From Candidatus Melainabacteria bacterium (GTDB lineage: Bacteria > Cyanobacteriota > Vampirovibrionia > 2-02-FULL-35-15): a DNA stretch of 64,000 nt. The position numbers and the translations under genes are program-made. The notes under the pieces were generated by a model, which saw only the letters and a list, made by a program, of their open reading frames with translations, searched no databases and was not told the DNA's origin. The DNA lies in contig JAHFBG010000005.1 of NCBI GenBank assembly GCA_023250155.1, positions 89,057-153,056 on the forward strand. Reading direction: 5' to 3'. Below, one piece after another: positions 1,002 to 23,042 of the stretch; position 1 is the first letter of the stretch; each line of letters begins with the position of its first letter.

Positions 1002-1003
1002 AA

Positions 1004-5802: not shown

Positions 5803-8121
5803 ATGGCACTATCAATCTTAATAACAATCTGTTTTTTTTCAATTTGCACATGTTTTGGATTTTTTTATTTGAGCAAAATTTTGAAAATTAATTCTTTGCT
5901 CTTTTTAATATCATTCTCTACTTCACTAGGCATAAGTTCTTATATTTTTCTTTGTCATCTTTTATCATTTATCATGGGACCTTCAAAAGCTTCAGAGATA
6001 TCTTTATGTGTGTTATTAGCCCTAACTATAATAATATTTCTAACTTGCAAAATAAAAGAAAAACTATTCTTAGAATTTAGCAAAAATAAATTTGGTTACA
6101 TCATATTAATCACAATAATTATAATTGCATGCACTTTTTCTGCAATATATAAGCACAGTATTCATGATCAAGCATGGCATATCCCTCTTGCACAAAGCAT
6201 TTACAAAAACTCTATTTATCCACTAAGAGATTTTTTAAGACCTGATTATGCTCTTATTTATCATTTTGGCGGAGATCTCTTTAGCGGAGCCATAAATCAT
6301 CTTTCTAAAATTGGTATCTTTAATTCTTTTGAGGTAACATCTAGCATTTGTGGTGGCATAACATTCCTAAGCTTGTTTTGTCTAGCTTGGATACTAACTA
6401 AAAAATATAAGTTATCTTTAATTTCAGCATTTTGTTGTTATTTTGGCTCAGGCTTACTCTGGTTAAATGCTCTTAGTACTTATACTACCAAGAACACATC
6501 TAATCTAAGTTTCATAGAAATATTCTTATCGAAAGGTATATATGGGTACATTTATAATTCACCATCTATAACTACTTTTTCATCCTCATCTAGCCTAGGA
6601 TACCCCATCCTGATTTTATGTTTTTTCTTGTTCTACATATTAACTAAGAAAAATAATTTGAAAGATTCCATTCTCTATATTCTTAGCTTGCCTATCTGTT
6701 TATTATCACTTAGCCTTTGTGCAGGCTGGTTATGCTTATCATTTCTAGCCAGTATATCCCTATACTTATTAATAATACTTTTAACAACCCTTATAAAAAA
6801 GAGAAAGATCCCTAGTCTGGCATTCGGCGTTTTTACAATGCTTTTTGTTTTTATTCTTCTGAATATTTTTTTTAGAAATGAAATGTACTCACAAGACCAA
6901 TTTCTTGGACGTTCAAATATTTTCAATATTGTCCTTAAAGAAAATCCATTTACAGTAACTGCTTGGAGCAGTGGGGAGGTATTCACCAAAACTATCTCAT
7001 GTTTTAGCTGGGATTTTATTCAGTCTTTTGGTTTAAGTCTTATACTCTTACCTATAGTTTTTATTTATTTATTAAAGTATAAAAATAAATTCTCTATATT
7101 GCTTTTTCTAGTACCACTTTTAACAATGCCACTGCCCCTATTATTTGAGTTCAAGCTAAGTCCTGTTGACTTTAATAGGCTGTTTGGTTTTGGAAATATC
7201 ATGCTTATACTTTTAACAACAACTGGAATTGGTTTACTTTATAAGAACTTTACTAATAATAAGCTTCTTCTTATAACTTATGTCATGTTCTTTTGTCTCT
7301 CATCACTTGCTGGATTATTAATTGGTGTTTTATTTTGTCCACAAATGTATTCAGATGCAGTCTTTACCAAGACTGCATTGCACAACCTTAGCAAAACAAA
7401 TTCCTTCGATGATTTATTCAAATTTCAAACAGAAATAACTAGAGACGCTCTAATGTCAAAATATTTATTCTCAGATAAATATAAAAGTGAGGTTAACTTC
7501 TTTACAAAATATGGTATGTCTTCTGATGTTGCTATAAGTAGTATCCCAGGTATTCCAATTTATTCTGGAGTTTATACTCTTATTCCATCAATGATGTATG
7601 GGCTAAAGAGTCAAATCTATTCTGGCTTTGACAATATTTATCCAACAGTTATTACTACACTAGATCCACATTTATTAAATGAACTGAATATAAAATGGGT
7701 GGGATATGATGAAGTATCAAAGAAAAAACTTCCTAAAGAAACACTTGACTTTCTAAATGACAGAAATATATTCATGTTGGTTTATTCAAGTCAAATCGAA
7801 CCAGATCCTAAGAATAAAATCTCTTATCAAATATTTCAAGTGAGTAACTTAACAAATCAATTACAAAATTATAAAAGACAAGCAGGATGGATACTGGTAG
7901 ATAAGGAAGGTAACCCAATTGAAATCATACAAAAACTTTATCCTAACATTAGCTTGTTTACTACAGAAAAAAATGCTCTTCAATACTTAAAAAAACTCAT
8001 ATCTCAAAATTTAAATCTTAAAACACAACTAATTACTGCACAACCAATTATTATTAAAATCACGCAAGAACAATTAGCTCAAAGTGGCTTATCTATAAAA
8101 TTAGAGGAGCATATTAATTAA
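5803..8121 (+). CDS. Large polytopic membrane protein, paralog B; putative GT-C-type glycosyltransferase
   Basis: 772 aa. Same architecture and motifs as paralogs A and C. Stop overlaps the next start (TAATG). Confidence 0.45.
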   Translation: MALSILITICFFSICTCFGFFYLSKILKINSLLFLISFSTSLGISSYIFLCHLLSFIMGPSKASEISLCVLLALTIIIFLTCKIKEKLFLEFSKNKFGYIILITIIIIACTFSAIYKHSIHDQAWHIPLAQSIYKNSIYPLRDFLRPDYALIYHFGGDLFSGAINHLSKIGIFNSFEVTSSICGGITFLSLFCLAWILTKKYKLSLISAFCCYFGSGLLWLNALSTYTTKNTSNLSFIEIFLSKGIYGYIYNSPSITTFSSSSSLGYPILILCFFLFYILTKKNNLKDSILYILSLPICLLSLSLCAGWLCLSFLASISLYLLIILLTTLIKKRKIPSLAFGVFTMLFVFILLNIFFRNEMYSQDQFLGRSNIFNIVLKENPFTVTAWSSGEVFTKTISCFSWDFIQSFGLSLILLPIVFIYLLKYKNKFSILLFLVPLLTMPLPLLFEFKLSPVDFNRLFGFGNIMLILLTTTGIGLLYKNFTNNKLLLITYVMFFCLSSLAGLLIGVLFCPQMYSDAVFTKTALHNLSKTNSFDDLFKFQTEITRDALMSKYLFSDKYKSEVNFFTKYGMSSDVAISSIPGIPIYSGVYTLIPSMMYGLKSQIYSGFDNIYPTVITTLDPHLLNELNIKWVGYDEVSKKKLPKETLDFLNDRNIFMLVYSSQIEPDPKNKISYQIFQVSNLTNQLQNYKRQAGWILVDKEGNPIEIIQKLYPNISLFTTEKNALQYLKKLISQNLNLKTQLITAQPIIIKITQEQLAQSGLSIKLEEHIN

Positions 8122-10421
8122 TGTTTTGTTATATAAAGTTTTTTTTATTTTTAATTTCTATTTGTGGCTTTGGTTTTACATCTTTAGTTCAAGTGAATAA
8201 AATAAAATCACTTGTCTTGTTAATTCCATCTTCTATCATAATGGGTACAGCCTCATATTTATTTCTTACTCACATTCTTTCTTTCATTATGGGTCCACAA
8301 TCTGCTTGCATAGTAAGTTTATTAGTTTTAATTGTTTGTACAATAACACTTTTAATTACAAAAAGGAGAGAGTTTTTAAAAATAGAGAATGAATTTACAA
8401 AGAATCAACTTATAAGTTTAATCCTCCTTGCAATATCAATATGTACTCTTACCTGGCTTGCTACAAGCAAGTTTGGTATCCATGACAAAGAATTTCATAT
8501 TCCTGTCGCACTGTCTATATTTCACAACAATATTTATCCTCCAAAAGATTTTTATAGACCTGAATATCTTTTACTCTATCATTATGGGGGAGACATATTA
8601 GCTGGTGCAATAAATCATATTTGCAAGATAGAAATTCTTTCTTGTTATGAATTAACCTCAACAATTTTTAGTGGAACAACATTTTTGTGTTTTTTTGCAC
8701 TGGCTTGGCTAATAACAAATAGTTTTCAAATATCAATTCTTAGTGCATTTTGTACTTATTTTGGCGGTGGACTTTTATGGCTGGACGCTATTATACGATA
8801 TCTCTCAAACACACTACCTGCAAACTCTTATAAATGGGATTTTCTACAAACCCTTTTAAATATTGGCATCCATGGAGGAATAATTGATGCTCCATCTGTT
8901 GGCACATTTGTATCTACAAGCAGCTTTGGTAATCCTTTGCTAATTTTCTCATTGATACTTTTTTGGAAATTCTTCAATGAAACCAATATTAAAATTCAGA
9001 TTGCAAATTTAATCTTTTTAACCATTTCTCTATTTAGTCTGTTCATCACTGCTGAATGGCTTTACATGACGTTTTGGGCAGGAATCATACCATTCTTACT
9101 ATTTCAAGCATTTAAGAGAAAAAATCTTGGTATGAGTGTTGTATTACTTATATCATCAATAATTCTTAATAAAACCCTTGGAAATGCTTTATTCCTACAG
9201 GATTCTATTCATCATCTTGGTCGTGCAAATATTTTTAACATCGGTATAAAAGAAAAATTGTTCTGGGTTACAAGTTGGGGGAGGCTTAGTGATATAACAA
9301 ATGAGTATAGAGAACTATCTTGTTTTTCATGGGATTTTATATCTGAGTTTGGCTTAAGTATGATTCTATTTCCACTTGTAATCATTTATTTATTTAAAGA
9401 AAGAAATAAACTTGCAATTCTTTTATTTCTATGCTCAATATTCACTATGTCACTACCCGTTATTATAGATTTTAAAATAAACCCTGTTGATGCTAATAGA
9501 TTTTTCGGGTTTGGAAACTCCATGTGTGTGATGTTAATTATAATTGGCATAAATAAAATCTTTAATTCCTATACACTTAAAAAGTTTATAGTTAGTGTTA
9601 GCATTATCGGATTTACATTGTCTCCAGTCACAGGACTAGTTCTTAGCTCAATTTTTAGTCCTTATATTTATCTAAGTAAACCGTTTGTCCATCATGTTTT
9701 TAATGAATTGAAAAAAGTTAAATCAATTGCAGAACTACAAGTTAACTTGTTAGCTTTAAATACATTGTTTTCGCAAAATTACAGATTCTATACACTCTAT
9801 CAATTTAAAAATATAATACAATTCTTAAAAGAACATAGCAAGCCAAATGATGTTGCAATTAGTAGCTCTACAGATATTTCTTTATATGCAGGTATTTATA
9901 CTTTAATACCTGCCAATGCATGGCTTTATAAGGATCTTTTATATTCACCATTTGACAGCATTTATTTAACTACACTTACTACTCTAGACTATCATCTATT
10001 AAATGAGCTAAATATTAAGTGGGTCATTCTCAGTAATCGAGCTAAACATAATCTCCCACAAGAAACTCAAAAGAAACTATTAGACAATGATATTTTAAAC
10101 TTAGTTTACATAGATAAGAATAATGATCTTGAAGTATATTACGTAAAAGCTCTAAGGAATATACTTCAAAATACTCCTCGTCAGACCGCTTGGTTATTAG
10201 TAAATAAAACTGGTAACCCTATTGAACCCAACATTCTACAAGAGAATAAAATTTCTTTATTTTCTACTTCATTTAATGCACTATCATATTTAAGCCAATT
10301 AATTAAATTGAAACTTATTGAAAAAAATGAATTGGTCACATCACAAGCTGTTGAGATAAGTAAACTTGAAGAACAAATAAATAAAGGTAATCTAGGAATC
10401 GCCCTGGATAGAAGATTTTAA
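8121..10421 (+). CDS. Large polytopic membrane protein, paralog C; putative GT-C-type glycosyltransferase
   Basis: 766 aa. The YHxGGD..GAINH block and LDYHLLNELNIKWV motif are shared with paralog B. Translationally coupled to paralog B. Confidence 0.45.
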   Translation: MFCYIKFFLFLISICGFGFTSLVQVNKIKSLVLLIPSSIIMGTASYLFLTHILSFIMGPQSACIVSLLVLIVCTITLLITKRREFLKIENEFTKNQLISLILLAISICTLTWLATSKFGIHDKEFHIPVALSIFHNNIYPPKDFYRPEYLLLYHYGGDILAGAINHICKIEILSCYELTSTIFSGTTFLCFFALAWLITNSFQISILSAFCTYFGGGLLWLDAIIRYLSNTLPANSYKWDFLQTLLNIGIHGGIIDAPSVGTFVSTSSFGNPLLIFSLILFWKFFNETNIKIQIANLIFLTISLFSLFITAEWLYMTFWAGIIPFLLFQAFKRKNLGMSVVLLISSIILNKTLGNALFLQDSIHHLGRANIFNIGIKEKLFWVTSWGRLSDITNEYRELSCFSWDFISEFGLSMILFPLVIIYLFKERNKLAILLFLCSIFTMSLPVIIDFKINPVDANRFFGFGNSMCVMLIIIGINKIFNSYTLKKFIVSVSIIGFTLSPVTGLVLSSIFSPYIYLSKPFVHHVFNELKKVKSIAELQVNLLALNTLFSQNYRFYTLYQFKNIIQFLKEHSKPNDVAISSSTDISLYAGIYTLIPANAWLYKDLLYSPFDSIYLTTLTTLDYHLLNELNIKWVILSNRAKHNLPQETQKKLLDNDILNLVYIDKNNDLEVYYVKALRNILQNTPRQTAWLLVNKTGNPIEPNILQENKISLFSTSFNALSYLSQLIKLKLIEKNELVTSQAVEISKLEEQINKGNLGIALDRRF

Positions 10422-10557
10422 AGTGTTATAACAATCTCAATGGTCTTTATAAATGCGCTTAATGACATATTATCCTAAAAATTTCTGCGGGAAACTCCAA
10501 ATTTAATCTATTGATATAATGTTATTTTAAATCTAAGGGTTAATATAGGTCAAAAAC

Positions 10558-11679
10558 TTGATTTCATATTTAAAAAATTTAAAAGATAAGGTAGACCGCC
10601 AAGTTGGTTCTGACTTTGTACAAAGAATTCTTCAATACCAAGGTGCAAAAGGATTAGTGAATCTTGTTAATGTTTCACTTACAGCTCTTCAGGAAGAACA
10701 GCCACCAAGATTAAATTATTTGCCCCCTTGTTTATTTGTAGAGGTAACAAACAGATGTAATCTTACATGTCCTACTTGCCAGCTTGGCACTGATGAAGCA
10801 TATAGAGGTTATAACAAAGGTGATATAAGTTTTGAGAACTTTAAAAAAGTCATTGATCAAATACCTTCTCTTGTTTATGTAACACTACAAGGTGTTGGTG
10901 AACCTCTTTTAAATAAAGACATTATGAAAATGATCCGACATTGTACTGATAGAGGAATTGCTACTTATATAAACACAAATGGCACAATACTTACTGAAAC
11001 AAAATCTCGCGAGCTTATTGAAGCTGGCTTATGCAATCTTTCAATATCAGTAAACAGCTTTAATGAAGATGTCTTTGCCAAAACAAGAAGTGGGGCATCT
11101 ATTACAAAAATCGCAGAAAACATTAAAAAATTTATAGAAATAAAAAGAAGTCTAAATTCAAAAAAACCAATTGTTTCTTTTAGATCCATACTAATGAAAG
11201 AAACTGAGCCTCATATGGAGGAATTGATTTTAAAATCAAGTGAGCTTGGAGTAGATGTATTATATATCCAGCTTTTTATCAGTATGATAGCAGACAAAAG
11301 TCTCATGGAATCTTCACTATCAAAAGATGAGGTTGAAAGCTTTTCAGAAAAGCTTGAGCAATGGAAGAAACAAGTTAAGAATCTTGAAATTGTTACTGAA
11401 AGTTTTGGCAAATCATCTAACAATCTAGGACAATGTAAGCTTCCATGGTTCAGTCCAAATGTAACTGCTGAAGGGTATGTTACACCATGCTGCACCATCA
11501 GCAATCCAAGCATTATAAATATGGGCAATGTTTTTGAAACCCCTTTTGAACAAATTTGGAATTCAGAAAAATTTGTAGAGTTTAGAGGGGGCTTCTATAA
11601 GAAGCAGCCTACAGTATGTACAGGCTGTCCTAGCTATATATTAAAATCGGCTTCTAATGGAAAGCCTGTCTACAATTAA
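10558..11679 (+). CDS. Radical SAM enzyme with C-terminal SPASM-type Cys cluster
   Basis: CNLTCPTC (CxxxCxxC) near the N-terminus, GVGEPLL. C-terminal Cys-rich region (CKLPW..PCCTIS..CTGCP). Confidence 0.65.
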   Translation: MISYLKNLKDKVDRQVGSDFVQRILQYQGAKGLVNLVNVSLTALQEEQPPRLNYLPPCLFVEVTNRCNLTCPTCQLGTDEAYRGYNKGDISFENFKKVIDQIPSLVYVTLQGVGEPLLNKDIMKMIRHCTDRGIATYINTNGTILTETKSRELIEAGLCNLSISVNSFNEDVFAKTRSGASITKIAENIKKFIEIKRSLNSKKPIVSFRSILMKETEPHMEELILKSSELGVDVLYIQLFISMIADKSLMESSLSKDEVESFSEKLEQWKKQVKNLEIVTESFGKSSNNLGQCKLPWFSPNVTAEGYVTPCCTISNPSIINMGNVFETPFEQIWNSEKFVEFRGGFYKKQPTVCTGCPSYILKSASNGKPVYN

Positions 11680-11684
11680 GCCTC

Positions 11685-12656
11685 ATGAGAAAATATACTT
11701 TTCTCATTATCAAACTAGTTCTCTTTGTAGGAATTTGTACTTGGATAGTTAAGTCAGTCAATATCACAGAATCACTTAATGTACTAAAAAAAACAAACCT
11801 GCTTTATTACTTAATAGCTTTTTTATTAAGTAATCTATCCAATATTTTTCTAACAATAAAATGGCATCGATTATCAACACCACTAAATATAAAAAGCAAT
11901 TTTTGGGAGTTATTATGTTTGAATTATATTTCCGTCTTTTATAGCATTTTTATTCCTGGGCAAGCCTCTGGAGAGGTGATTAAAGGACTAAAATTGATAA
12001 AAAAAGAGGGGTCTCATCAAACCATCTGGGTACCAATATTTATCGATAAGATAACCAATGTTTTAATCGTGTTTATAATAGGGTCCATTGCTACTTTATT
12101 AGATAGTAATTTCAGAAAAAATACAAGCTTAGTTATTTTACTTATTACAATAACAGCATTACTAGTGCTTTTGACTTTAATTCTATTCAGTGAAAATACA
12201 ACAAAAATTGTAGATTTTCTAAAAAAAATCCTCATTAATATCCTAACTATATTTAAACTGAATACTCAATTTATTAAAAACTTTTCAGTGGATTATTTTG
12301 AAAATTATAAAAAACAAGATTTAATTCTCTTAGAAACATTAATGTGGAGCTTATTTATAAAAATTCCTCCTGTTTTTTCTTTGTATTTTTTAGCTTTGAG
12401 TTTAAATATTGATTTGAATATAATCCAATCCGCATGGCTATTTTCACTTGTTTCTGTCGTAAGCCTATTACCTATAAGTTTTTCAGGGCTTGGTGTTAGA
12501 GAAGGGACTATAATTGTTTTACTATCAAAAATTGGAATACCAAATTCATTCAGCTTGAGTTTGTCTATGCTAATCTTTACTACAGGAATATTAATGGGAC
12601 TAATAGGAGGAGCACTAGAGCTGGTTTCTAGCTTTAGACTATTTAAGTCAAAATGA
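11685..12656 (+). CDS. Integral membrane protein of the flippase-like / lysyl-PG-synthase-TM-like family (UPF0104-like)
   Basis: About 8 TM helices and no soluble domain. Sits in a glycan locus. Its 3' end overlaps the next gene (ATGA). Confidence 0.4.
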   Translation: MRKYTFLIIKLVLFVGICTWIVKSVNITESLNVLKKTNLLYYLIAFLLSNLSNIFLTIKWHRLSTPLNIKSNFWELLCLNYISVFYSIFIPGQASGEVIKGLKLIKKEGSHQTIWVPIFIDKITNVLIVFIIGSIATLLDSNFRKNTSLVILLITITALLVLLTLILFSENTTKIVDFLKKILINILTIFKLNTQFIKNFSVDYFENYKKQDLILLETLMWSLFIKIPPVFSLYFLALSLNIDLNIIQSAWLFSLVSVVSLLPISFSGLGVREGTIIVLLSKIGIPNSFSLSLSMLIFTTGILMGLIGGALELVSSFRLFKSK

Positions 12657-14908
12657 GTAAAAAGTCTTGGTTCATTAACAACTATCACATTTGGATTCCT
12701 CTTCTAATAACATTTTTAATATATGCAATTTCCCTAATCTACGGATTTAGAAACTTCGATGAAGACATTTTAATAAAGAACTTTTACACACATAAAACAT
12801 TTCAAGAATATATTGAGAAATTTTTTTTAGTTCATGCTGGTGGTGCATCTAAAGCACATGGGTTTTCATTTTCAGGGGTACAGAATACTCATGTGTGTTT
12901 TCTTGGAATGCCAACCATTTATCTGGTGGCTTATCTCTTTAAAGCAAATCCTTTCTTATATCATTCATGGAGCTTGCTGTTACACTCTATTGCAGTAGTC
13001 TTTTTGGTGTTATTTGCACATCGATTAACTCAAGATAAAAAGATTGCAATGTTTACAGCATGCGCCTGGACATTACATCCTACAAATGTAGAGTCAATCA
13101 TTTGGGCTACAAACTGGTTACAGTGCTTAGGAGCAGGATTTTATTTTTTCATCTTGTGGTGGATCACATCAATCATTCATAGTGACATGCCGTGGCATGT
13201 CACTACGCGACAAACCTTTTCAATAATGCTTTTCACTACCATAGCAATTTTATTCACCGAGCACACCATTACCATACCAATTGCAATTTTTGTAACTACT
13301 TTCTATCTCTTAAACAATTTAAAACAAAAAAATGCTTTGCAAAATTCTATAAAAACAAGCTTACCATCATTTGTTGTAATATTTAGTTATTGGCTTATAA
13401 GAAATCTAATGATTTCAAAAGCAATACAAACATCTTCAAGTAATGGGTTTCATGAACTCTTGAATAGACTGCTCTTTTTAACTCCACAAGTTTTTATACA
13501 TCAAATAAAGCTTGTTTTATTTCCAGCAAATCTAACAATTGATCAATTGGATTTATTACATTTAGATCAATCATACTTCAGGAGCTATCACCTAATCTGC
13601 CTAATAACAATTGCATTAATTGGAGTAAGTATATTTCTTCTTAGAAAGAGTTTTCCATTCTTATCTTATGGACTACTGATGTACACGGTAACTCTCTTAT
13701 CTTTTATTCAAATCATTCCACTTTACTCTATGTCAGCTGAAAGATACAACTATTTTGGCTCTGCATTTATTGTCCTTGGAATTATAAGTACAATATTTCA
13801 ACTTAATAAATTTAAAAAAACAGCTCCTTATATAGCTATTTTATGGTGTTTAATACTAGGCATAAGAGGTGAGTTTAGAATATGGGACTGGAAGGATAGT
13901 AAAACACTATTCCGTAGCACAATCAACACAAGCAAATCATTCTTAAAGAAAGGGATTTGGACTTATAACCTTGCTATTTGTGAAGAAGATATAGAGAAAA
14001 AGAAAGTATTATTAACAGAGTCAAATATACTGTTGAAGCGGTTTATTCAACAACCTACAAAACGTTATGAGATTGACAAAAGCGTTGGTTTAATCCTTAC
14101 AAAGTATGAATTAGATCCTGAATCACTACTAGCAAAAGCCTCTGACAGAATAGCTACTAACTATGAAATCTTAGGAGATAAAAAAAATCAATTAAAATAT
14201 CTAAACAAAGCATTAAAATACTCAAGACCTAAATCCCAATCCAGAAGCTTAATCTATAAAAATCTTGGGACTTACTATTTTCAAGAAAGTAATTATAAAA
14301 AATCATTAGATTACTATTTTAGGAGTTATGAAATCTCACCTAATCCTACAATTTCATATGCTATAAGCATTTGTTATCTCAAGCTAAACGATTTTAACAA
14401 CTATGAGAAGTACTTAAAAGAAGCAGCTTCTGTAATTTCTCCATATAATGTTTCACCATTTAAAACCTATGGACAGTTTCTAGAACTAGAAAAGCATGAC
14501 TATGCAAATGCTCTTAAATACTATAAGATAGCAAGTTTACTTGAAAACAATGTTGAGCCTTATATCTTACTTAGTTCTCTTTATTTAAAACAAACTCAGA
14601 TTAATAAAGCCTATGAAATTATAAAGAATGGACTTCATAGTTTTCCAGAAAATCCTACACTCATTTATTTTCGAGGAACGGTAAATTTAAATAAAGGTAA
14701 AATTAATGATGGGCTACAAGATTTAATCAATGTAATTAAAAAAACTGATACTTCAAATGATATTAAAATCGAGGCTTGCCATATTCTTGTTAACCTATTT
14801 CTTAACCAAAATGATTATAATAATGCTAAAAAATATAATGATTTGATTCTATCCATAAATCCCAACGATAAAGAAGCTAATGAGTTAAAAAGAACTGAAA
14901 TTTATTGA
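12653..14908 (+). CDS. Polytopic membrane protein with C-terminal TPR repeats, TMTC/PMT-like GT-C candidate
   Basis: FDEDIL in first loop. FLTPQVFIHQIKLVLFPANLTIDQ block paralogous to the 1004 and 31935 ORFs. TPR-like C-terminal half. Confidence 0.55.
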   Translation: MSKKSWFINNYHIWIPLLITFLIYAISLIYGFRNFDEDILIKNFYTHKTFQEYIEKFFLVHAGGASKAHGFSFSGVQNTHVCFLGMPTIYLVAYLFKANPFLYHSWSLLLHSIAVVFLVLFAHRLTQDKKIAMFTACAWTLHPTNVESIIWATNWLQCLGAGFYFFILWWITSIIHSDMPWHVTTRQTFSIMLFTTIAILFTEHTITIPIAIFVTTFYLLNNLKQKNALQNSIKTSLPSFVVIFSYWLIRNLMISKAIQTSSSNGFHELLNRLLFLTPQVFIHQIKLVLFPANLTIDQLDLLHLDQSYFRSYHLICLITIALIGVSIFLLRKSFPFLSYGLLMYTVTLLSFIQIIPLYSMSAERYNYFGSAFIVLGIISTIFQLNKFKKTAPYIAILWCLILGIRGEFRIWDWKDSKTLFRSTINTSKSFLKKGIWTYNLAICEEDIEKKKVLLTESNILLKRFIQQPTKRYEIDKSVGLILTKYELDPESLLAKASDRIATNYEILGDKKNQLKYLNKALKYSRPKSQSRSLIYKNLGTYYFQESNYKKSLDYYFRSYEISPNPTISYAISICYLKLNDFNNYEKYLKEAASVISPYNVSPFKTYGQFLELEKHDYANALKYYKIASLLENNVEPYILLSSLYLKQTQINKAYEIIKNGLHSFPENPTLIYFRGTVNLNKGKINDGLQDLINVIKKTDTSNDIKIEACHILVNLFLNQNDYNNAKKYNDLILSINPNDKEANELKRTEIY

Positions 14909-15018
14909 TTTTACAAAAGCCTTACAATGTGTTATAAGTTATACAACTTAGAAAAAGTAAGCTATGCAATATACAACAATTTCTGTTAGGTGATTTCTAA
15001 CATTTAATAACCCAATTC

Positions 15019-17382
15019 ATGAAAATCAGCCAATTAATAGGCTCAGCAATACTAAGTACCACTTTTATCGTGGGCTCACAAAGTATTTCTGCAGGTGAAA
15101 AAGATAAACAGCCATCAAAAACCTTAACAGAAAAGAGACTCCAACCTCCACCTAAAATAAAAATAGCCTTAGACCAATTTGATATTACAAAACAAGAAAT
15201 TGTAGATGAGTTATTTAAGAATTTTGAAGATGTAAAACTCGGCAAAAGTGAAAGAGAAGAAATATCTAAATTTTTTAATGACAAGCTACAAACAATAGAT
15301 CGACCTACTGAGTCTTTTACGAAGGGATGTTTTTTATTGTTAGAGCTTTCTCGCAATGAACGAAATCATCATCAAAAATTTATTGAGTGGCTAAACCTAC
15401 AAGCAGAACAATCAATTCGCGATAAATCAAAAGAAAAGCAAAAAATCATAGAAAGTGCTATTAGAGAAGAATTGCGCATGGTAATAAAAACATTGAATCA
15501 TATTGAGCTCTCTAAATCTTTGGTTATACCTTATACAAAACTAATAAAAGAAAATAATTCTAATGCAGACTTTCTAAAGAATGGGATACGAGTTTATGAC
15601 CAATTTAAATCAAGAGGAAGTAAAGAAATCAATGACAACTCAATAGCACTACTTGACAATATCATAGAAGGATTATTAAAACTTCCGCGAAATGAACAAA
15701 AAGAACTTAAAGCTCAGATTCTTTTACTCCCTCAAAATAGTAATTTTCAGTCTGATAATGAAGCAGAACAAAACAGGCTTGTAGAACGATTATCAAAAGC
15801 ATTATGTAAGAATAAAAATGTTGATACCGATGGATTGATACAATTAACTGATTCATTTTTATATAAGGTTCCTTATCTTGGTTCAACTCAAACAGCAACA
15901 AAATGGCATCCTTATACACTCTATAAACTAGTCAATGATAATAAAGAATATTTTGAAAAAAATATTAAAAATATTACTGAAACAACTCAAGATTCTAAAG
16001 ATGAAAAGGCTAGATTAAAGGCAAGAGATGAGCTTCTACAAGCCTATATAACCTTCCAACATATTCCTAGAATAAAAAAGCTTTCTGATACTTACATTAA
16101 TATAGATCCAAAACTTGTTAGTCTTGAAAACTTAGGTAAGCTACAAAAAGAAGTAAGTACTTGGTATAACGATAAGCTAGAAAGACCAATGTTTAAAAGT
16201 ATTGTACAAGCATTAGAAAGTGAATCTGTAGAAACAACTACTTCAAGTAATGGAATACGATATGCTAAAAATGAAAGCTGGAGAGATCTTAACAAACACT
16301 TAGAAATCATAGTGAGGGTTAATCCTGAGCTAAAAAATGAATTTCGAGATGTCTTAATTAAAAGACTTGAAAATGATAAGAGTCCACAAAATAGAGAAAT
16401 GGTATATGAAACAATTAAAAACATATTGTATAACCAAGCATTTATAGAACACCCTCCACTAATGAATCTTATAAAAAAAGGAATTGCTGAGGAATCATCA
16501 AATGGAGCTTATCTCATTGGAGAACTGCTGCCTTCTGGTTGGCGTCCTCACTCATTTGTCAATGCATTTGAAAACTATGATGTAATTAAAGAATTAGACC
16601 CAAAAGAAGTGTCAGCAATTGATGCTATCAAATTTGATCTTATTCGTACTGTAAGTGGTGACACTGATTTATACAAAATTTATCTACCGCGACATTCTTT
16701 TGAACCAACAAAAGATAAAACAATAGATCCTAAAACGCTTAGTGCTATCTTACAACTTAGAGAAAATGCATACATTGCACTTTCTTCTATTAATCTACAC
16801 AGCCTTGAAGCAAGGGCTCATGATAAAAGAATTGATTACCTTGAAAGAAGAATTGAAAGGGTTGGAACCATTCAAACGCTTACCCCAACATGGGGAAAAC
16901 AAGCTGCTTCTCTTACCATGCTTTATCTTCAATATAGCGATACTGTCTTACCTGAAAGCGAAGGTAAAATTTACTTTGAATCAAAGTTAGATTTTTTAAG
17001 GGGAAAATTTTTTGATGGTATTACAAAAACATATGAAATAGAAGGTGAGAAAAAAAAATACACAACTATACCCTTTTTCAATGCAGTATTAGAAAGTGAG
17101 TTCATCAGATTAAACCCAGATGAAAATAGAAAAATTATCGACCAGCTTTATCGTCAAAAAGCTACAAATGCAGAAATTAGAGATCAAATTTTCAGACAAG
17201 AATCAAAACTTCAAAGAAGATATATTGAAATGAAACAAACATTTGCATTAAATTTTTTAACTCTTTTATGTGAGCGTGACCACACAAAGTTTAATGAATA
17301 CCTGCCTTATCTACAAAGACTAGGATATAGAAATGATGAGATTAGAGAAGTAGTAGCTATGTTTCTTGAAACGAAGGACTGA
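15019..17382 (+). CDS. Secreted α-helical protein, member 1 of a two-paralog family (function unknown)
   Basis: N-terminal signal-peptide-like segment (…ILSTTFIVGSQSISA|GE). The C-terminal third aligns with ORF 18935 (LDFLRGKFFDG / LDFLREKFFEG; YEIEGEKKKYTT). Confidence 0.5.
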   Translation: MKISQLIGSAILSTTFIVGSQSISAGEKDKQPSKTLTEKRLQPPPKIKIALDQFDITKQEIVDELFKNFEDVKLGKSEREEISKFFNDKLQTIDRPTESFTKGCFLLLELSRNERNHHQKFIEWLNLQAEQSIRDKSKEKQKIIESAIREELRMVIKTLNHIELSKSLVIPYTKLIKENNSNADFLKNGIRVYDQFKSRGSKEINDNSIALLDNIIEGLLKLPRNEQKELKAQILLLPQNSNFQSDNEAEQNRLVERLSKALCKNKNVDTDGLIQLTDSFLYKVPYLGSTQTATKWHPYTLYKLVNDNKEYFEKNIKNITETTQDSKDEKARLKARDELLQAYITFQHIPRIKKLSDTYINIDPKLVSLENLGKLQKEVSTWYNDKLERPMFKSIVQALESESVETTTSSNGIRYAKNESWRDLNKHLEIIVRVNPELKNEFRDVLIKRLENDKSPQNREMVYETIKNILYNQAFIEHPPLMNLIKKGIAEESSNGAYLIGELLPSGWRPHSFVNAFENYDVIKELDPKEVSAIDAIKFDLIRTVSGDTDLYKIYLPRHSFEPTKDKTIDPKTLSAILQLRENAYIALSSINLHSLEARAHDKRIDYLERRIERVGTIQTLTPTWGKQAASLTMLYLQYSDTVLPESEGKIYFESKLDFLRGKFFDGITKTYEIEGEKKKYTTIPFFNAVLESEFIRLNPDENRKIIDQLYRQKATNAEIRDQIFRQESKLQRRYIEMKQTFALNFLTLLCERDHTKFNEYLPYLQRLGYRNDEIREVVAMFLETKD

Positions 17383-17450
17383 AAGCATCACTTGCTCTAT
17401 CATGTAACATATCTTAAATACAAATAAGTCTTTAAAAAAACTTTATCTTT

Positions 17451-17476
17451 CTGTAACTCCTGGTTACAGTTTTTTT
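17451..17476 (+). terminator. Rho-independent terminator after ORF 15019..17382
   Basis: ctgtaac-tcctg-gttacag hairpin followed by T7. Confidence 0.5.
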
Positions 17477-17535
17477 AAAGCTACCGGGGTATACTCCATA
17501 GGTGTAGGCTAAATATAACTTTTTAGGGGTATAAT

Positions 17536-17877
17536 ATGAATACAACAATGAATGATCCTATTGAACAAAGAGTAAAAACACTAGAATTGAAAGTCGAGTT
17601 TCTTGAAAATTGGAAAAATACTCCTTTTATTCAAGTAACACTTCCAGTCATACTTTCTATTTTCTTGGCTACTTCCTGGAATAATTTTGGATTTACATCC
17701 ATTGATAAAAGATTTGACTCGGTAGAGAAGGGGATGAATAAACTATCATACAGAATTGGAAAGGTAGAAAATCGACTAGGTAAAGTAGAAAACCGATTAG
17801 GTAAAGTAGAAGATCGACTAGACAAAGTAGAGAATCGACTAGGTAAAGTAGAAGTCAAAATCGAAAGACTTAACTAG
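17536..17877 (+). CDS. Small membrane-anchored coiled-coil protein with five tandem heptads (KVENRLG)
   Basis: One central hydrophobic helix. The C-terminus is a 21-nt tandem repeat at 17757..17860 encoding GKVENRL x5. Confidence 0.4.
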   Translation: MNTTMNDPIEQRVKTLELKVEFLENWKNTPFIQVTLPVILSIFLATSWNNFGFTSIDKRFDSVEKGMNKLSYRIGKVENRLGKVENRLGKVEDRLDKVENRLGKVEVKIERLN

Positions 17878-18715
17878 ATTTTATTACTGCATTTGAATTA
17901 AGTTCTTTATAATCAAGCTCTTGATTATCAGACTCAATAAGATATTTTTTAAAAGCATCAGTACCAGGAATAGGTTTATATTTTTTTGAAACTATACTTA
18001 TATCTCTTAAGAGATAATTTTCAAACTCTTCTTTAATAAAATACTGTTTCCTTTTATCTTCAATTATATGAAAGCAATTTCTTTCTAAGTACCTCTCTAA
18101 AAGTTTTTTTTCATCTGCTGCAATCACAGCAAGCACAAATAGCCATAAGTGATCAGTTGTTGCGCCTGCATTATATAACTTCTCACAAGTAGAAGCACCT
18201 ATTCCAAACATTCGATAAATAGCTGGTCGTTCAATTCCATCTCGAAAGATTAGTCTTATTGTTTCTTTTTTCTTTTGTTGTAATTCATTAAACTTTTCTT
18301 CAATCTCTGTATCAGCAATAACGGAGTAAAGATATCGTTCAAGCTCTTCATCAGCTTGTTTCCATCCTCCATCTTCTAGGATAGAAATACAATCCATAGT
18401 CAAATGTTTTATAGGACAGTTTCTTTCAACTCTATTAACCGCAGCATCATAATAAAGCCTGATTTGTTCAGAAGATGCAGAAGCACCTATTAGTTCTGCA
18501 ACTCCTTCTTCAAAGTCTTCTATAGGTAAATCATTTCTATGAAGGTAATTTATTATATGATCATATAACTCAGAATCATCATATAAACTAGTGGATAGAG
18601 AAATTAATTCCCAAATTGTTGTATCACTGAACTTATCAAAAGACTGATATGAAGAGTATTTAGGAAGTGAAGGAAAAGTATCTACTTTTTGTATAGAAAC
18701 ACTCATAAAGTACAA
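17870..18715 (-). CDS. Hypothetical protein, 281 aa, no recognisable domain
   Basis: Long ORF with coding-like composition. Divergently arranged to ORF 18935. Confidence 0.35.
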   Translation of the reverse strand: MYFMSVSIQKVDTFPSLPKYSSYQSFDKFSDTTIWELISLSTSLYDDSELYDHIINYLHRNDLPIEDFEEGVAELIGASASSEQIRLYYDAAVNRVERNCPIKHLTMDCISILEDGGWKQADEELERYLYSVIADTEIEEKFNELQQKKKETIRLIFRDGIERPAIYRMFGIGASTCEKLYNAGATTDHLWLFVLAVIAADEKKLLERYLERNCFHIIEDKRKQYFIKEEFENYLLRDISIVSKKYKPIPGTDAFKKYLIESDNQELDYKELNSNAVIKSS

Positions 18716-18934
18716 ATATTATAGTTTATTCTTAGAGTAGTTGTTCACCTGATTTTATTACAAGCAATAGTCCTTATTCACTCCAGGTGAACAGTTTTAC
18801 TTCTTATGATAAAGTTAGAGGTTAAACATCTTAAACATGTATTTCCATCATTGTTTGACATTAAGATCTTAATTGTGTTATAAATCTTTCAGTTAAATTT
18901 TTATATTTAAGAAGGCAATTATAAGAAATAAATC

Positions 18935-21754
18935 GTGATAAGTAAAATCACTCCAAATAGATTAATAGGTTCCCTAGTACTAGGTTCAGCTTTTATTGTG
19001 GGTTCACAAGGCATATCTGCAGATAAAAAAGAAAGTCCAAAAGTTTTGAATGAGAAAGGTGACAAATCCTTACCTAAACAAAATATAACATTAGACAAAT
19101 TAACTCTTTCAAAAGAAGTATTACAAGAAAAACTATTTAAACAAGTTGAAATATTAAAACCAGGTACAAAAGAAAGAAAAGAAGTACTTGAGATTTTAAA
19201 ACAAAAAGCTGTTTTTGAATTTGAATCTCCAAACAGAAATGAGATTGGGAAAAAGCTAATCCAACTTATGGAGAAAAATAAAAATGCAGAGAGTTGGAAA
19301 GATTTAGCATCAACTATTTTAGATATAATGGAGAAACAAGCATTAGAAAATAAAGAAATTTTACGTGTTGATAACTGGACGGGTAAGGTCGATAAAATAA
19401 AACTCAATGAAGAGTTAATGACTCCATTTGCTAAATGTTTAATATCTGCCTTTGATGATAAATCTCCTGAAGAGTTAAAGACACAAGCTCAAGTTCAAAT
19501 AATCAATTTAATATATCCACCTTTTATATATAAAGAACCTTTCAAAGAATTTCATAAAATACTATTTCAAGAAATAAGTAACGTTCCAGAAGACAAACAA
19601 AAAGAAGTAGCAGTAAAGCTTCGTGACATCACTGGCATTCACTTCAACCATATGGCACATTTACAAAAGCATGAATATACTATCGTGTGGGAATTAGCTA
19701 GAACAATAGCACCTTCCTGTGAAACTATTTTAAAAACAAATTTAAAACTCCTAGCAAGTGATGATTTGACAAAAAAAACTATAGCAACAGATAACTTAAT
19801 AGCTTTAAATAATGTTTTTAGTTTTTCATCGTCAAGATCAGTTTTACATAGAGAAATGAATGCTGTTAAACATATGGATCAGTTTTTCAAAGGAACACTA
19901 ACAAAAGATCCTAAATTACTAAGCACTCAAGAACTAGAAGTCACTATTAAAGCAAGTCAAGCTCTTCTTGAGCTATGTAGTGAAAATCCAATTGAATACC
20001 ATAAATCATATCAAAGCTGGCTACAAAAACAGATTGATAATATACTCATAGATACTTCTAAAGAAAAGCAAATTCTTATAGAAGATGCCATAGCACATGA
20101 GGCAAATCGCAGTTATCTCCACCCACCAGAAATAAGAAAAGAATTTCAACCACTTATAGAAAAATACACAAAACTAACCGTACAGAATTTAGATAATCCT
20201 TTATTTCTAGGTAAAGCTTTAGATACATTTATCATATTCAGGGATCGTATAGTGAACTCATCATACGACATAGACCCTAAAATAAAAAATAACCTTAGTG
20301 AATCTACTATCAACTTATTGGATTTTATAATTGATGGAATTAACAAACTCCCAGAAAGTAAAGAGAAAACTCTTCTTAGGAGTCATATACTTTCAATACC
20401 AGCTTACTTAAGCGCTGAAGAAAAAGCCAAACAAAATAAACTCATTGAAAAGCTCTCTGATTTTTACTGTAAGCAACCTCATAATATAGAAGAGTTTTTA
20501 CAAGTTAGAGGATCCTTATTATATGAAGATCTTACATCTAGCTGGTCTCCTTATATGCTTCATAGTTTTGTATCTAAGAATTTAGACTATTTCGAAAAGA
20601 ATACTAATCAAATTCTTGAATCGCACAAAAAGGCTAAAGAGCCAGAGCATAAGCTATCTACTAGAATCCAAGTACTAGAGCTCTATAAATTCTTTTCAAG
20701 ATTAGAAGAGTCTGAGAATTTGGATGTGTGGTTAAAAACAAGAAATCTAAAAACTCGTTATGAGTTAGGTTCAAAAGAATTACAACCTCTAATATTGAAA
20801 ACAAGTTCTTTCTTTAAAGAAAAACTAGAAAGGCCTTTGTTTAAAATCATCTTATCTGAGATTGACAATGAAACAGTAAAAAGTAAAAAAACAAAAAGTG
20901 GGCAAATCCTTACAGACAATGTAACCTGGAAAGCATTAAACCGAGAACTCCAAATCTTAGTAAAGCTAAGACCATCACTAAGTAGTGAAATCAGAGAAAC
21001 TATAGTTAAGAGATTAAAAAAAGACTCAGATCCACACATCCGCGAAATGTGTTATGAAACTTTAAGAGCTACATTGTCTCGTGAACATAATATTGATAAA
21101 GATCTAATGAGTATTTTAAAAGATGGTATAGCTAAAGAAACCTCACCAGAAGCTATTCGTGGCATAAGTAAAGTTTTATCTGAATATTATATTCTTAGCA
21201 ATAAAAAAGATGGCTCATATTTTAATCCATTTAGAGATCTTTCAAAAGTAAAAGACATAAAATACGAAGAAGTCTCACCCCTATTTACTATTACCTTAGA
21301 CGCTATTCGTATATTAGGAGGAGATGGTGATTTGTTCAAAGCATATCTTCCTCACCATACATTTAAACCTGAAAAGGATGGAAGCATAAATAAAGATGAT
21401 CTTAAAGCCATATTACAGCTTAGAAAAAACGCATTTCTTACCCTTGCAAATACTGGAATTAATATTTCTACATCTGCACCAGACTATAGAGATAGTGTAA
21501 TGAACTATCTGGAAAGAAGATTAGAGAGATATGCTCCTCCAGATGACTTGATAAAAATCTGGGGAGAAGAAGCCACTGCTTTAATAAAAATTTACTCTAC
21601 CCTTGATTCAACAACAAAAAGCAATTCAGAGATTCAATTTAATTCTAAGCTTGATTTTTTAAGAGAAAAGTTTTTTGAGGGCACTCCTACATACTATGAA
21701 ATTGAAGGAAAAAAAAACTATACATCTCAATTCCACTATTCAACCATATCCTAG
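18935..21754 (+). CDS. Secreted α-helical protein, paralog 2 of the 15019 family; N-terminal 939 codons end at a frameshift in an A9 tract
   Basis: GTG start and signal-peptide-like N-terminus. Homology to paralog 1 continues past the stop in the -1 frame. Confidence 0.5.
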   Translation: MISKITPNRLIGSLVLGSAFIVGSQGISADKKESPKVLNEKGDKSLPKQNITLDKLTLSKEVLQEKLFKQVEILKPGTKERKEVLEILKQKAVFEFESPNRNEIGKKLIQLMEKNKNAESWKDLASTILDIMEKQALENKEILRVDNWTGKVDKIKLNEELMTPFAKCLISAFDDKSPEELKTQAQVQIINLIYPPFIYKEPFKEFHKILFQEISNVPEDKQKEVAVKLRDITGIHFNHMAHLQKHEYTIVWELARTIAPSCETILKTNLKLLASDDLTKKTIATDNLIALNNVFSFSSSRSVLHREMNAVKHMDQFFKGTLTKDPKLLSTQELEVTIKASQALLELCSENPIEYHKSYQSWLQKQIDNILIDTSKEKQILIEDAIAHEANRSYLHPPEIRKEFQPLIEKYTKLTVQNLDNPLFLGKALDTFIIFRDRIVNSSYDIDPKIKNNLSESTINLLDFIIDGINKLPESKEKTLLRSHILSIPAYLSAEEKAKQNKLIEKLSDFYCKQPHNIEEFLQVRGSLLYEDLTSSWSPYMLHSFVSKNLDYFEKNTNQILESHKKAKEPEHKLSTRIQVLELYKFFSRLEESENLDVWLKTRNLKTRYELGSKELQPLILKTSSFFKEKLERPLFKIILSEIDNETVKSKKTKSGQILTDNVTWKALNRELQILVKLRPSLSSEIRETIVKRLKKDSDPHIREMCYETLRATLSREHNIDKDLMSILKDGIAKETSPEAIRGISKVLSEYYILSNKKDGSYFNPFRDLSKVKDIKYEEVSPLFTITLDAIRILGGDGDLFKAYLPHHTFKPEKDGSINKDDLKAILQLRKNAFLTLANTGINISTSAPDYRDSVMNYLERRLERYAPPDDLIKIWGEEATALIKIYSTLDSTTKSNSEIQFNSKLDFLREKFFEGTPTYYEIEGKKNYTSQFHYSTIS

Positions 21755-22038
21755 AATATGAATTTATAAAATTAAATCCACAGGAAAACAGAAAAATCAT
21801 TGATGAAATATACAGAACTCCTAAGACAGGTGAACAAGTGAGAGAGATGATTTTTAAAGAAGCACCTAGACTACAAGGCAAGTATCTAAAGATGAGACAA
21901 GATTTTGCATTGACTATTCTAAACACCTTAGCTGACAGTCCACATACAAGTCTTAGTACCCATGCAGATTATTTAAGATTAATGGGTTATAGAGACTATG
22001 AGTTAAAAGAAGCTTTAGAAAATTTTATTCCGCAGTAG
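21716..22038 (+). pseudogene. Out-of-frame C-terminal continuation of paralog 2 (..IPLFNHILEYEFIKLNPQENRKIID..MGYRDYELKEALENFIPQ)
   Basis: Matches the paralog 1 C-terminus (IPFFNAVLESEFIRLNPDENRKIID…LGYRNDEIREVV). One extra A in the A9 run at 21709..21717 would fuse it to 18935..21754. Confidence 0.5.
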
Positions 22039-22043
22039 TTAAA

Positions 22044-22160
22044 AAAAGCATCTTTCATTCCACAGTGCCCTCCCTCAACTCCTCTGACCATTAACTAAGC
22101 GTTAACGGTTCCCCTCGGGGCATTCGGGAGTGGCACTGCTACATCATGCTTTTTTTTACA
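22044..22160 (+). repeat. Copy A of a ~110-nt nested-hairpin repeat element ending in a T-tract; probably acts as a terminator
   Basis: aaagcat…agtgccctccc…ccattaactaagcgttaacgg…cccctcgggg…gggagtggcact…atgcttttttt. Second copy at 23077..23185. Confidence 0.5.
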
Positions 22161-22226
22161 CTTAATCTATCCCAGACCTACTAACAAATCTCTTTTACCA
22201 ACTTCATGTTAATATAATCAACAATT

Positions 22227-23042
22227 ATGGTCATAACAGAAGAAAAAACAAGCAAATCAATTAACGAAAGAGAAAACGCTGTAAGACAAACAAGCACAAT
22301 AAGCTTAAACCTTTTTAATTATTGTTTTTTGATTTATTATTATTTAGTAAAAGAGATTAAAAAAAATGCTCATTATGCTAAAGGAGTATTGCTTGATGTA
22401 GGATGTGGATCTTCTCCATTTCAAAACTATTTTCTACCTCACATAGAAAAATATTTAAAACACGAACATCCCCTTGCTGTAAAACCAAACATTGAATATG
22501 ACTATCTTTCAGAACTACCAGAAATAAACGCACCCACAAATTCAATAGATACAATAATTTCATTCTCAGTTTTAGAACATGTAAGCGAACCATTTGAAGC
22601 CATAAAGGAGTTTAAAAGAATTTTAAAAGATAATGGAGTATTCATGATATCTGTTCCACAGTATTGGCATCTTCATGAAGAACCCCATGACTATCTTAGA
22701 TTTACAAAACACGTACTGAGAGAAAAAATTACTAAATTAGGTTTTAAGATCTTATACATGAAAGAAGAAGGAAAGTCTTTTGCTACTGTAGGCCAGGCTT
22801 TTTGTAATGCAATTATTTTAATGTTTGAATTAAAACATGTTAAAAATATTGTTAATTTTCTATCAGGAAAAAAAGTAGATAATATTGGGAAAAGTATTAT
22901 TTATGCTATTTACAAATCTCCTTTAATTCTTTTAGCAATTATCCTAATACCACTTATCAATTTAATCTTTTTAACCTTAGATCAAATACTAGGTAGCCCA
23001 AGAGATACTATTGGGTATTTTGTTATTGCAAGAAAAGTTTAA
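22227..23042 (+). CDS. Class I SAM-dependent methyltransferase (type 11-like)
   Basis: LLDVGCGSSPF motif I, FSVLEHV motif. Flanked by two copies of the structured repeat. Confidence 0.55.
   Translation: MVITEEKTSKSINERENAVRQTSTISLNLFNYCFLIYYYLVKEIKKNAHYAKGVLLDVGCGSSPFQNYFLPHIEKYLKHEHPLAVKPNIEYDYLSELPEINAPTNSIDTIISFSVLEHVSEPFEAIKEFKRILKDNGVFMISVPQYWHLHEEPHDYLRFTKHVLREKITKLGFKILYMKEEGKSFATVGQAFCNAIILMFELKHVKNIVNFLSGKKVDNIGKSIIYAIYKSPLILLAIILIPLINLIFLTLDQILGSPRDTIGYFVIARKV

Follow-up and report, generated by a model that had tools for sequence, protein, structure and literature searches.

Two paralogs in a glycan locus of Candidatus Melainabacteria define a multi-copy family of probably exported proteins with a predicted HEAT-like alpha-solenoid fold

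We analyzed a stretch of 64,000 nucleotides (nt) from a Candidatus Melainabacteria bacterium (assembly GCA_023250155.1, contig JAHFBG010000005.1), hereafter the window, in which two large paralogous genes lie within a glycan-synthesis locus. Both proteins belong to an undescribed protein family that is multi-copy, narrowly distributed and of a known structural kind with an ordinary fold. We consider it probable that they are exported and act without enzymatic function, as binding scaffolds in the periplasm or at the cell surface, drawn from a fast-evolving multi-copy family. All gene and feature coordinates given here are positions within the window.

The mechanism that we propose is as follows. 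A Sec signal peptide, replaced by a Tat-type signal in some distant relatives, would direct the protein across the inner membrane. After a disordered linker rich in Lys, Pro and Thr, the chain would fold into a long HEAT-like alpha-solenoid with three protruding beta-hairpins. This solenoid would serve as a non-enzymatic binding platform in the periplasm or at the cell surface, and would be evolving much faster than its neighbours. Paralog 1 would be the ancestral occupant of a slot in the glycan locus, while paralog 2 and two small genes, coding for 113 and 281 amino acids (aa), would have come in, or been retained, as a strain-specific 4.8-kb segment.

Two paralogous proteins with export signals

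The two paralogs and the putative signal peptide of the first are located as follows.

15019-17382, plus strand: paralog 1 (family representative P0001), 787 aa, a predicted exported HEAT-like alpha-solenoid and the syntenic ortholog of P0002, the copy found in the closest relative
15019-15093, plus strand: predicted Sec signal peptide of paralog 1, MKISQLIGSAILSTTFIVGSQSISA followed by GEKD, with a hydrophobic core and then an I-S-A motif
18935-21754, plus strand: zero-frame open reading frame of paralog 2 (P0005), 939 aa, GTG start

Paralogs 1 and 2 are 35% identical over 610 aa (E 2e-95, with the 939-aa open reading frame aligned). Their N-termini can be aligned too (41% identity over 86 aa), and paralog 2 carries an N-terminal extension of about 240 aa that is missing from paralog 1. 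Sequence searches of Pfam, NCBIfam, PHROGs, PADLOC and PDB returned nothing credible for either protein, and neither matched HEAT, ARM, HEAT_2 or any other Pfam model at E<=0.1. A first reading of this region, made from the sequence alone, had described two large secreted-type paralogs without recognisable domains in an uncharacterised gene set, and both parts of this description were borne out. Paralog 2 is 36% identical to paralog 1 and 33-35% identical to members from other genomes. Because it is thus only 33-36% identical to any other family member, paralog 2 is an old paralog. A recent tandem duplication was ruled out, as paralog 1 is no closer to it than the members from other genomes. 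No further family copy was detected within the window by the family hidden Markov model (HMM).

The N-terminus of paralog 1 reads MK-ISQLIGSAILSTTFIVG-SQSISA/G, where a basic n-region is followed by a hydrophobic h-region and by small residues at positions -1 and -3, the pattern recognised by signal peptidase I. In the family HMM search, this segment stands out as an N-terminal domain of its own (23 bits). An N-terminal hydrophobic segment is present in 43 of the 48 long family members, with KD12 hydropathy maxima of 1.8-2.3, and the closer members share a ..LG.A..IGSQNISA motif, which is xSQNxSA-like in most of them. Tat-like RRxFL motifs were detected in five distant members, namely P0029, P0038, P0044, P0052 and P0057 (RREFL, RRAFL, RRVFL, RRSFL and RRTFL, respectively), and are absent from paralogs 1 and 2. 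From the N-terminal segments in 43 of 48 members and the twin-arginine signatures in the five distant ones, export across the inner membrane would be a property of the whole family, which apparently switched export pathway in its history. The contig of P0038 also carries an LptF/G gene, and this fits a diderm envelope. The sequence-only reading of the large proteins as alpha-helical and secreted is supported in so far as they are all-alpha and, given the conservation of the signal peptide across the family and the Tat-like motifs in its distant members, very probably exported.

Size and distribution of the family

The family was delimited by a full HMM scan of 1.84 billion cluster representatives; the indexed protein search alone had given at least five members. 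The scan retrieved 58 representatives, mostly 690-1260 aa long, at E<=1e-3; of these, 49 also pass E<=1e-10. None of the 47 aligned members contains a credible Pfam domain (E<=1e-3). Profiles for TPR or Sel1-like repeats of 34-36 residues did not match the family, whereas the neighbouring protein at 12653-14908 does match TPR models. Only one alignment column, F312, is at least 90% conserved, and this single column argues against a catalytic site shared by the family.

All family loci that were fetched are low in GC (30-34%). The three loci with organism or sample names come from two Candidatus Melainabacteria groundwater metagenome-assembled genomes and one groundwater metagenome contig. No relatives of the family were found in the metagenome scan.

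Several loci bear on copy number. P0004 and P0007 are in one metagenome-assembled genome, and at the P0009 locus three large genes without annotation follow one another. The sample that yielded the window strain also gave a contig (L017, Logan SRR14366787) on which three directly abutting genes of about 1200-1260 aa, none with a Pfam domain, form a tandem array at 56-11186. The first and third of these matched the family HMM (E 6e-134 and 3e-67), and the tandem genes are probably further, very divergent copies from the same or a co-occurring organism.

Predicted fold

An AlphaFold2 model of paralog 1 was built from a five-sequence alignment (predicted local distance difference test score, pLDDT, 74.4; predicted template modelling score, pTM, 0.64). 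In this model, residues 1-80 are disordered and are followed by about 35 helices and three beta-hairpins (residues 282-293, 405-417 and 669-682). The helices form tandem helix-turn-helix repeats that stack as a solenoid. Foldseek comparison gave E-values of about 1e-6 to CAND1, SF3B1 and karyopherin-beta, with global TM-scores of about 0.2; such low TM-scores are expected for flexible solenoids. No enzyme fold appeared among the Foldseek matches listed. On the basis of the model, the proteins are HEAT-like alpha-solenoids by predicted fold, not by sequence membership.

The family can be compared with two groups of helical-repeat proteins. Like the HEAT/ARM proteins (CAND1, karyopherin-beta and other importins, SF3B1, VPS35, TOG), its model consists of antiparallel helix pairs stacked into a long curved solenoid. 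Protruding beta-hairpin insertions of the kind known from CAND1 are also predicted in paralog 1, and the model has no catalytic centre, as is typical of HEAT/ARM binding scaffolds. However, the family matches none of the HEAT, ARM or TPR Pfam models. It is also bacterial, has a very narrow distribution and bears Sec or Tat signals, so that its members would act outside the cytoplasm.

The second group comprises exported bacterial helical-repeat proteins, that is, Sel1-like repeat proteins (Helicobacter Hcp, Legionella LpnE and EnhC) and the periplasmic TPR scaffolds AlgK, BcsC and PgaA. In these proteins, too, a signal peptide precedes an all-alpha repeat scaffold; they often occur in several fast-evolving copies, and some of their genes lie in polysaccharide loci. 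Unlike them, the family described here shows no Sel1-like or TPR signature, no Cys-bridged repeats and no lipobox, and its repeat units are longer and irregular.

Synteny and a strain-specific segment

The closest relative, GCA_023250175.1, has a single copy (P0002) that is 56% identical to paralog 1 and occupies the same slot. The gene order in this relative is radical SAM, PF03706, TPR membrane protein, P0002, methyltransferase and NTP-transferase. For three flanking genes, identity between the window and the relative is 77%, 86% and 90%. Because paralog 1 shares only 56% identity with its ortholog, against 77-90% for these three flanks, the solenoid evolves several times faster than its neighbours.

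At the relative's locus (L001), the stop codon of P0002 and the start of the methyltransferase gene are separated by 25 nt. A conserved CATGnTAATATAATCAAC..ATGG stretch upstream of the relative's methyltransferase gene aligns to about 22207-22232 of the window. The gap and this alignment together delimit the variable segment.

17383 to about 22200, no strand: strain-specific 4.8-kb segment, absent from the closest relative and containing paralog 2, both small genes (113 and 281 aa) and a structured element

Judged by synteny, paralog 1 is the resident of the slot and lies outside the variable segment. The sequence-only reading had grouped both paralogs in one inserted island. A presence/absence polymorphism does exist at 17383 to about 22200, but it does not extend to paralog 1, which is syntenic with P0002. 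The GC content of the segment (0.30-0.315) does not deviate from that outside it (0.29-0.32). No integrase or transposase domain was detected in the segment with Pfam, NCBIfam or PHROG models, a repeat search revealed no flanking direct repeat, and the nearest tRNA gene is at 56921.

The glycan locus and its relation to the family

The window is AT-rich throughout (GC about 0.30). Pfam matches assign its first part, from about 1 to 50 kb, to one large glycan-synthesis locus, and the proposed glycan setting is borne out by matches to GT2, GT4, PMT_2, DUF2298, DegT, NTP-transferase, carbamoyltransferase and methyltransferase models. Five large polytopic membrane proteins encoded at 1004-14908 fall into two paralogous groups, a TPR-fused pair and a DUF2298-like trio.

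1004-3406 and 12653-14908: two TPR-fused polytopic membrane proteins, 25% identical to each other
3467-5749, 5803-8121 and 8121-10421: three DUF2298-like polytopic proteins, the last two 43% identical

The locus further encodes a PMT_2 protein, GT2 and GT4 transferases, a radical-SAM/SPASM protein and a PF03706 flippase-like protein. At least six methyltransferases, a carbamoyltransferase, a DegT aminotransferase, an NTP-transferase, an asparagine-synthase homolog and dTDP-sugar genes are also present. Outside the glycan locus, beside a tRNA gene (56921-56992), 57255-60224 codes for a 989-aa protein with about seven He_PIG/PKD Ig-like repeats, which is probably a surface protein.

Adjacency alone had suggested that the large proteins could be glycosylation substrates of neighbouring GT-C enzymes. 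The exported solenoids would then be acceptors, glycosylated in the periplasm by the TPR-bearing, GT-C-type membrane glycosyltransferases next to them. An exported solenoid would indeed meet a periplasm-facing GT-C enzyme, and GT-C-like proteins (DUF2298, PMT_2, TPR-fused polytopic) are numerous in the locus. In addition, the order TPR membrane protein, solenoid, methyltransferase, sugar-nucleotide genes is kept in the second genome. TPR-fused GT-C enzymes, such as the eukaryotic TMTCs, act on proteins. However, the two syntenic genomes are close relatives (flanks 77-90% identical), hence their shared gene order reflects one descent and counts as one observation. Seven other family members lie beside unrelated housekeeping genes and are unlinked to GT-C genes; these contexts contain PmbA/TldD, IMPDH-like, QueC, folate/riboflavin, FtsY, PEP synthase, and thioredoxin with ABC genes. 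Neighbours of other family members also include a HEAT_2 protein. Ser and Thr together make up only 12.6-13.2% of the paralogs, with no S/T/P-rich tract that could act as acceptor, a weak test as the O-glycosylation motifs of this lineage are unknown. Sequons of the D/E-X-N-X-S/T type number zero in paralog 1 and one in paralog 2. Moreover, known families match only the TPR part of the proteins at 12653-14908 and 1004-3406, so that their GT-C identity is putative. We thus regard a role as glycosylation substrate as quite improbable.

The PF03706 genes raise another alternative, in which the solenoid is not a substrate but a periplasmic accessory subunit, either scaffold or chaperone, of an envelope glycan or lipid modification carried out with the PF03706 flippase-like protein and a GT-C enzyme. 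A PF03706 (LPG_synthase_TM) gene is found two genes upstream of both paralog 1 (window 11685-17382, with the PF03706 gene at 11685-12656) and P0002. Independently, the distant, Tat-signal member P0038 is immediately preceded by a PF03706 gene, encoded on the same strand 175 nt away (L016, 6797-10805). The two PF03706 proteins align over their full length (25% identity, E 1e-21). An analogy is offered by polysaccharide export, in which helical-repeat scaffolds of the periplasm are common (the TPR proteins AlgK, BcsC and PgaA). The family could thus act in the periplasm as a partner of PF03706 proteins, in an envelope-modification pathway that would be new. This alternative nonetheless appears improbable: the co-occurrence with PF03706 was observed in only two independent cases among about nine contexts, several paralogs per genome and tandem arrays do not suit a stoichiometric pathway subunit, and the solenoid diverges fast relative to the pathway genes.

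A frameshift in paralog 2

The reading frame of paralog 2 is interrupted near its 3' end, at a site that is also recognisable in paralog 1.

21709-21717, plus strand: A9 run at which the frame of paralog 2 changes by -1 (GGA AAA AAA A/AA CTA...)
21715-22038, plus strand: C-terminal 107 codons of paralog 2 in the -1 frame, open and family-like
17050-17058, plus strand: A9 run of paralog 1, in frame (AAA AAA AAA, KKK) and homologous to the frameshift site of paralog 2

The zero frame of paralog 2 stops at 21754 after 939 codons. A -1 shift within the A9 run, in which one A is re-read, leads to a product of exactly 1034 aa with its stop codon at 22036-22038. The length of about 1034 aa proposed in the sequence-only reading is thus exact, but it is reached only through this shift, which had gone unremarked. 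The repaired protein reads ...YEIEGKKKLYISIPLFNHILEYEFIKLNPQEN..., which aligns with ...YEIEGEKKKYTTIPFFNAVLESEFIRLNPDEN... of paralog 1. The shifted tail of 107 codons is recognised by the family HMM (E 6.6e-24) and is 54.5% identical to P0032 and 48% identical to P0022; the probability of 107 stop-free codons at this base composition is about 2e-4. The annotation of paralog 2 is corrected accordingly: it is one frameshifted gene, not a 939-aa gene followed by a 63-aa gene.

The 939-aa product is called on four contigs. Across this region, the window sequence is matched at 100% identity by assemblies of two separate runs (SRR14366783 and SRR14366787) and by one from ENA, all with the same A9 run. 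No full-length variant of paralog 2 was present among the matches listed from a set of 5.8 billion proteins. Because the A9 run is identical in assemblies of two separate runs and no full-length variant was seen, an assembly error is unlikely to be behind the frameshift.

The window contains only three A9 runs and none that is longer, and two of the three are the homologous Lys-Lys-Lys site of paralogs 1 and 2. Paralog 1 and all aligned homologs are in frame across the frameshift site. Because the homologs are in frame, the frameshift looks like a recent lesion and not like a conserved expression mechanism. The simplest history would be the contraction of an A10 tract (GGA AAA AAA AAA) to A9. 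Standard decoding would then yield the 939-aa product, devoid of the conserved C-terminal helical bundle, and full-length paralog 2 would be made only by occasional slippage of the polymerase or the ribosome on the A9 run.

A programmed -1 ribosomal frameshift of the dnaX kind, yielding two products by design, was also weighed. A classical slippery heptamer, A_AAA_AAA or A_AAA_AAC in the zero frame, is present at 21709-21718, and the downstream frame is intact and conserved. However, the 83 nt downstream of the A9 run fold no better than shuffled sequences (z -0.39), and thus offer no stimulatory structure. In dnaX, the -1 shift is stimulated by a Shine-Dalgarno sequence at a spacing of about 10 nt; the sole such sequence here (GAAGGA) abuts the slippery site. 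Since no stimulatory RNA structure was found and since paralog 1 and all aligned homologs read through the site, where a simple A10 to A9 contraction suffices, we rejected programmed frameshifting, which we judge very improbable.

Runs of nine A residues are documented as slippage-prone, hypermutable sites in many bacteria, and some AT-rich genomes seem to tolerate them (PMC1088944). The apparent lesion of paralog 2 resembles the 9A-tract genes that are rescued by transcriptional slippage (Thermus dnaX, Shigella mxiE, IS elements; PMC1088944) in having an A9 run at the frame change and an intact, conserved downstream frame. It differs from them in that its homologs are in frame and in that slippage in this organism is hypothetical.

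The two orphan genes of the segment

Between the paralogs lie two small genes, the first of which includes a tandem repeat.

17536-17877, plus strand: 113-aa orphan with a short N-terminal helix, one transmembrane segment (residues 29-53 approximately) and a C-terminal coiled coil of KVExxxx heptads
17764-17853, plus strand: 21-bp tandem repeat (4.3 copies, 82% matches) encoding the heptads of the 113-aa protein
17870-18715, minus strand: 281-aa ORFan, predicted to be cytoplasmic and acidic; 278 aa from the ATG at 18706 chosen by gene callers

The 113-aa protein had been described as having one transmembrane helix and five KVENRLG heptads. One hydrophobic segment and five KVE-heptads were indeed found, but only three of the latter are exact KVENRLG copies, the others being KVEDRLD and KVEVKIE. 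Its Pfam scores all fall below the gathering thresholds (XhlA, 27.5 bits against 40, E 3e-4; FlaC_arch, 27.1 against 27.8; DUF7310, 21.2 against 34.7), and its NCBIfam matches are all far below the cut-offs. The best match is phrog_12015 (E 1.2e-12). Over residues 34-110, the protein is 38% identical (77 residues) to a hypothetical protein encoded beside cI in Mannheimia phages. The nearest relative is a 161-aa hypothetical protein of Mannheimia phage vB_MhS_535AP2 (L018, 39809-40294), encoded two genes downstream of cI, a position at which lambdoid phages keep exclusion genes. Like the XhlA-like and phrog_12015-like phage proteins, the 113-aa protein is small, with one transmembrane segment and a heptad coiled coil. 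However, the similarity is concentrated in the low-complexity heptads, the surroundings contain no phage genes, and the phage proteins are themselves uncharacterised. These matches are a weak hint of a phage-type origin. No homolog of the 113-aa protein was found at other family loci.

The 281-aa hypothetical protein, divergent from paralog 2, is present where the sequence-only reading had placed it. Among 5.8 billion proteins its only homolog is itself; no match was obtained in Pfam, NCBIfam, PHROG, PADLOC or PDB or among phages and plasmids, and no homolog was found at other family loci. A stop-free run this long would arise by chance with a probability of 2.5e-10. An AlphaFold2 single-sequence model was unusable (pLDDT 35.6). 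A possible resolvase-like helix-turn-helix pair (..GASASSEQIRLYY.. and ..GIGASTCEKLYNAG..), which would have tied the protein to the inverted repeat described below, was dropped, as neither an internal repeat nor a helix-turn-helix profile was detected.

The content of this segment and the A9 run bear on a further interpretation, a variable repertoire of secreted effectors or adhesins directed at a host or prey. The poly-A run would be a phase switch and the 4.8-kb segment a horizontally acquired cassette. The family is lineage-restricted, expanded and fast-evolving, with a eukaryote-like HEAT fold and tandem arrays. Gene content is strain-specific, a homopolymer lies at the frameshift, and the 113-aa protein bears a weak resemblance to the small coiled-coil membrane proteins encoded in phage immunity regions. 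Predation is known in some Melainabacteria (Vampirovibrio). On the other hand, neither a secretion system beyond Sec/Tat nor a mobility gene was seen in the window, and its base composition shows no anomaly. The A9 allele is shared by all assemblies checked, again with no full-length variant among the matches listed. An effector or adhesin repertoire is thus unlikely. In its broader form, with these proteins as the surface repertoire through which low-GC groundwater Melainabacteria engage host, prey or partner cells, varied by the copy number of cassettes and by poly-A expression switching, we hold the idea to be unlikely as well.

Candidate regulatory elements

Four candidate elements were located in or beside the intergenic regions.

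18742-18751 (TGTTCACCTG) and 18784-18793 (CAGGTGAACA), no strand: perfect 10-bp inverted repeat with a 32-nt spacer, in the divergent intergenic region
18855-18884, plus strand: promoter-like TTGACA-N18-TATAAA (TG at -15/-14) some 50 nt ahead of the start of paralog 2, read by eye and not listed by the promoter scan, as its -10 hexamer ends in A
17451-17476, plus strand: intrinsic-terminator-like hairpin (17451-17469) and T-run after paralog 1, the only such site in 14800-22300
22038-22159, plus strand: structured, GC-rich element of about 120 nt, right after the paralog 2 stop and before the methyltransferase gene, with a terminator-like outer stem, A7GCAT/ATGCT8

Both arms of the inverted repeat are exactly as first reported. 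As RNA it folds with -14.7 kcal/mol (z -2.4). Perfect 10-mer inverted repeats gave 41 hits, falling into about 17 loci of the window; Markov simulations gave about 13 hits. With up to one mismatch, the motif occurs six times where 2.5 occurrences are expected, and 3 of 100 shuffles reach six. A third exact copy of TGTTCACCTG is found at 21827-21836 (minus strand), inside the post-frameshift part of paralog 2, and a copy with one mismatch at 15092-15101 (minus strand), in the signal-peptide cleavage region of paralog 1. The three exact copies of the 10-mer in 64 kb are all within this gene set, the extra copies being in coding and not in promoter sequence. At the scale of the window, the inverted repeat is not beyond chance.

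The left arm overlaps the -35 element of a sigma-70-like promoter of the 278-aa gene (TGAACA-18-TATAAT, minus strand, 18747 to 18718), and the promoter-like site at 18855-18884 would serve paralog 2. Because an intrinsic-terminator-like hairpin follows it, paralog 1 would form a separate transcription unit. The inverted repeat had been proposed to indicate common regulation of the gene set. This proposal is not supported, as the repeat is not statistically unusual, the terminator-like hairpin separates paralog 1 and the orthologous region is absent from the relative. The repeat is at most a possible operator.

The element at 22038-22159 is a nested multi-stem hairpin of -42.9 kcal/mol (z -5.75), and none of 200 shuffled sequences was as stable. 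It matches no Rfam family, occurs once in the window, and was found neither in the relative nor in the Joint Genome Institute (JGI) metagenome scan. Possible identities are a complex bidirectional terminator and a small RNA gained with the insertion.

Significance of the family

Several points weigh against the interpretation of these proteins as exported, non-enzymatic binding scaffolds. The Sec signal was called by inspection and hydropathy, and it is from this call that we infer the cleavage site and final location. Confidence in the paralog 1 model is low at residues 1-100 and 470-620. The absence of conserved residues is weak evidence in an alignment of 16% identity, and alpha-solenoids can carry active sites or bind small ligands. 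The conserved position of P0002 and the PF03706 gene directly upstream of a distant member leave room for a specific role in envelope glycan or lipid metabolism. Finally, gain of the 4.8-kb segment in the window strain and its loss from the relative are indistinguishable, and a deletion in the relative could equally explain the difference.

What is known of the non-photosynthetic relatives of cyanobacteria in groundwater comes almost entirely from metagenome bins, and the majority of the genes specific to these lineages are unannotated. The present results do not overturn current understanding, and both the fold and the frameshift mechanism are ordinary. One such family is now defined: it has about 58 representatives, a HEAT-like predicted fold and a probable compartment, reached by Sec or Tat export, and it is multi-copy, fast-evolving and variable between strains. 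Thus, the family is a reasonable candidate for a part in the envelope or cell-contact biology of this group.

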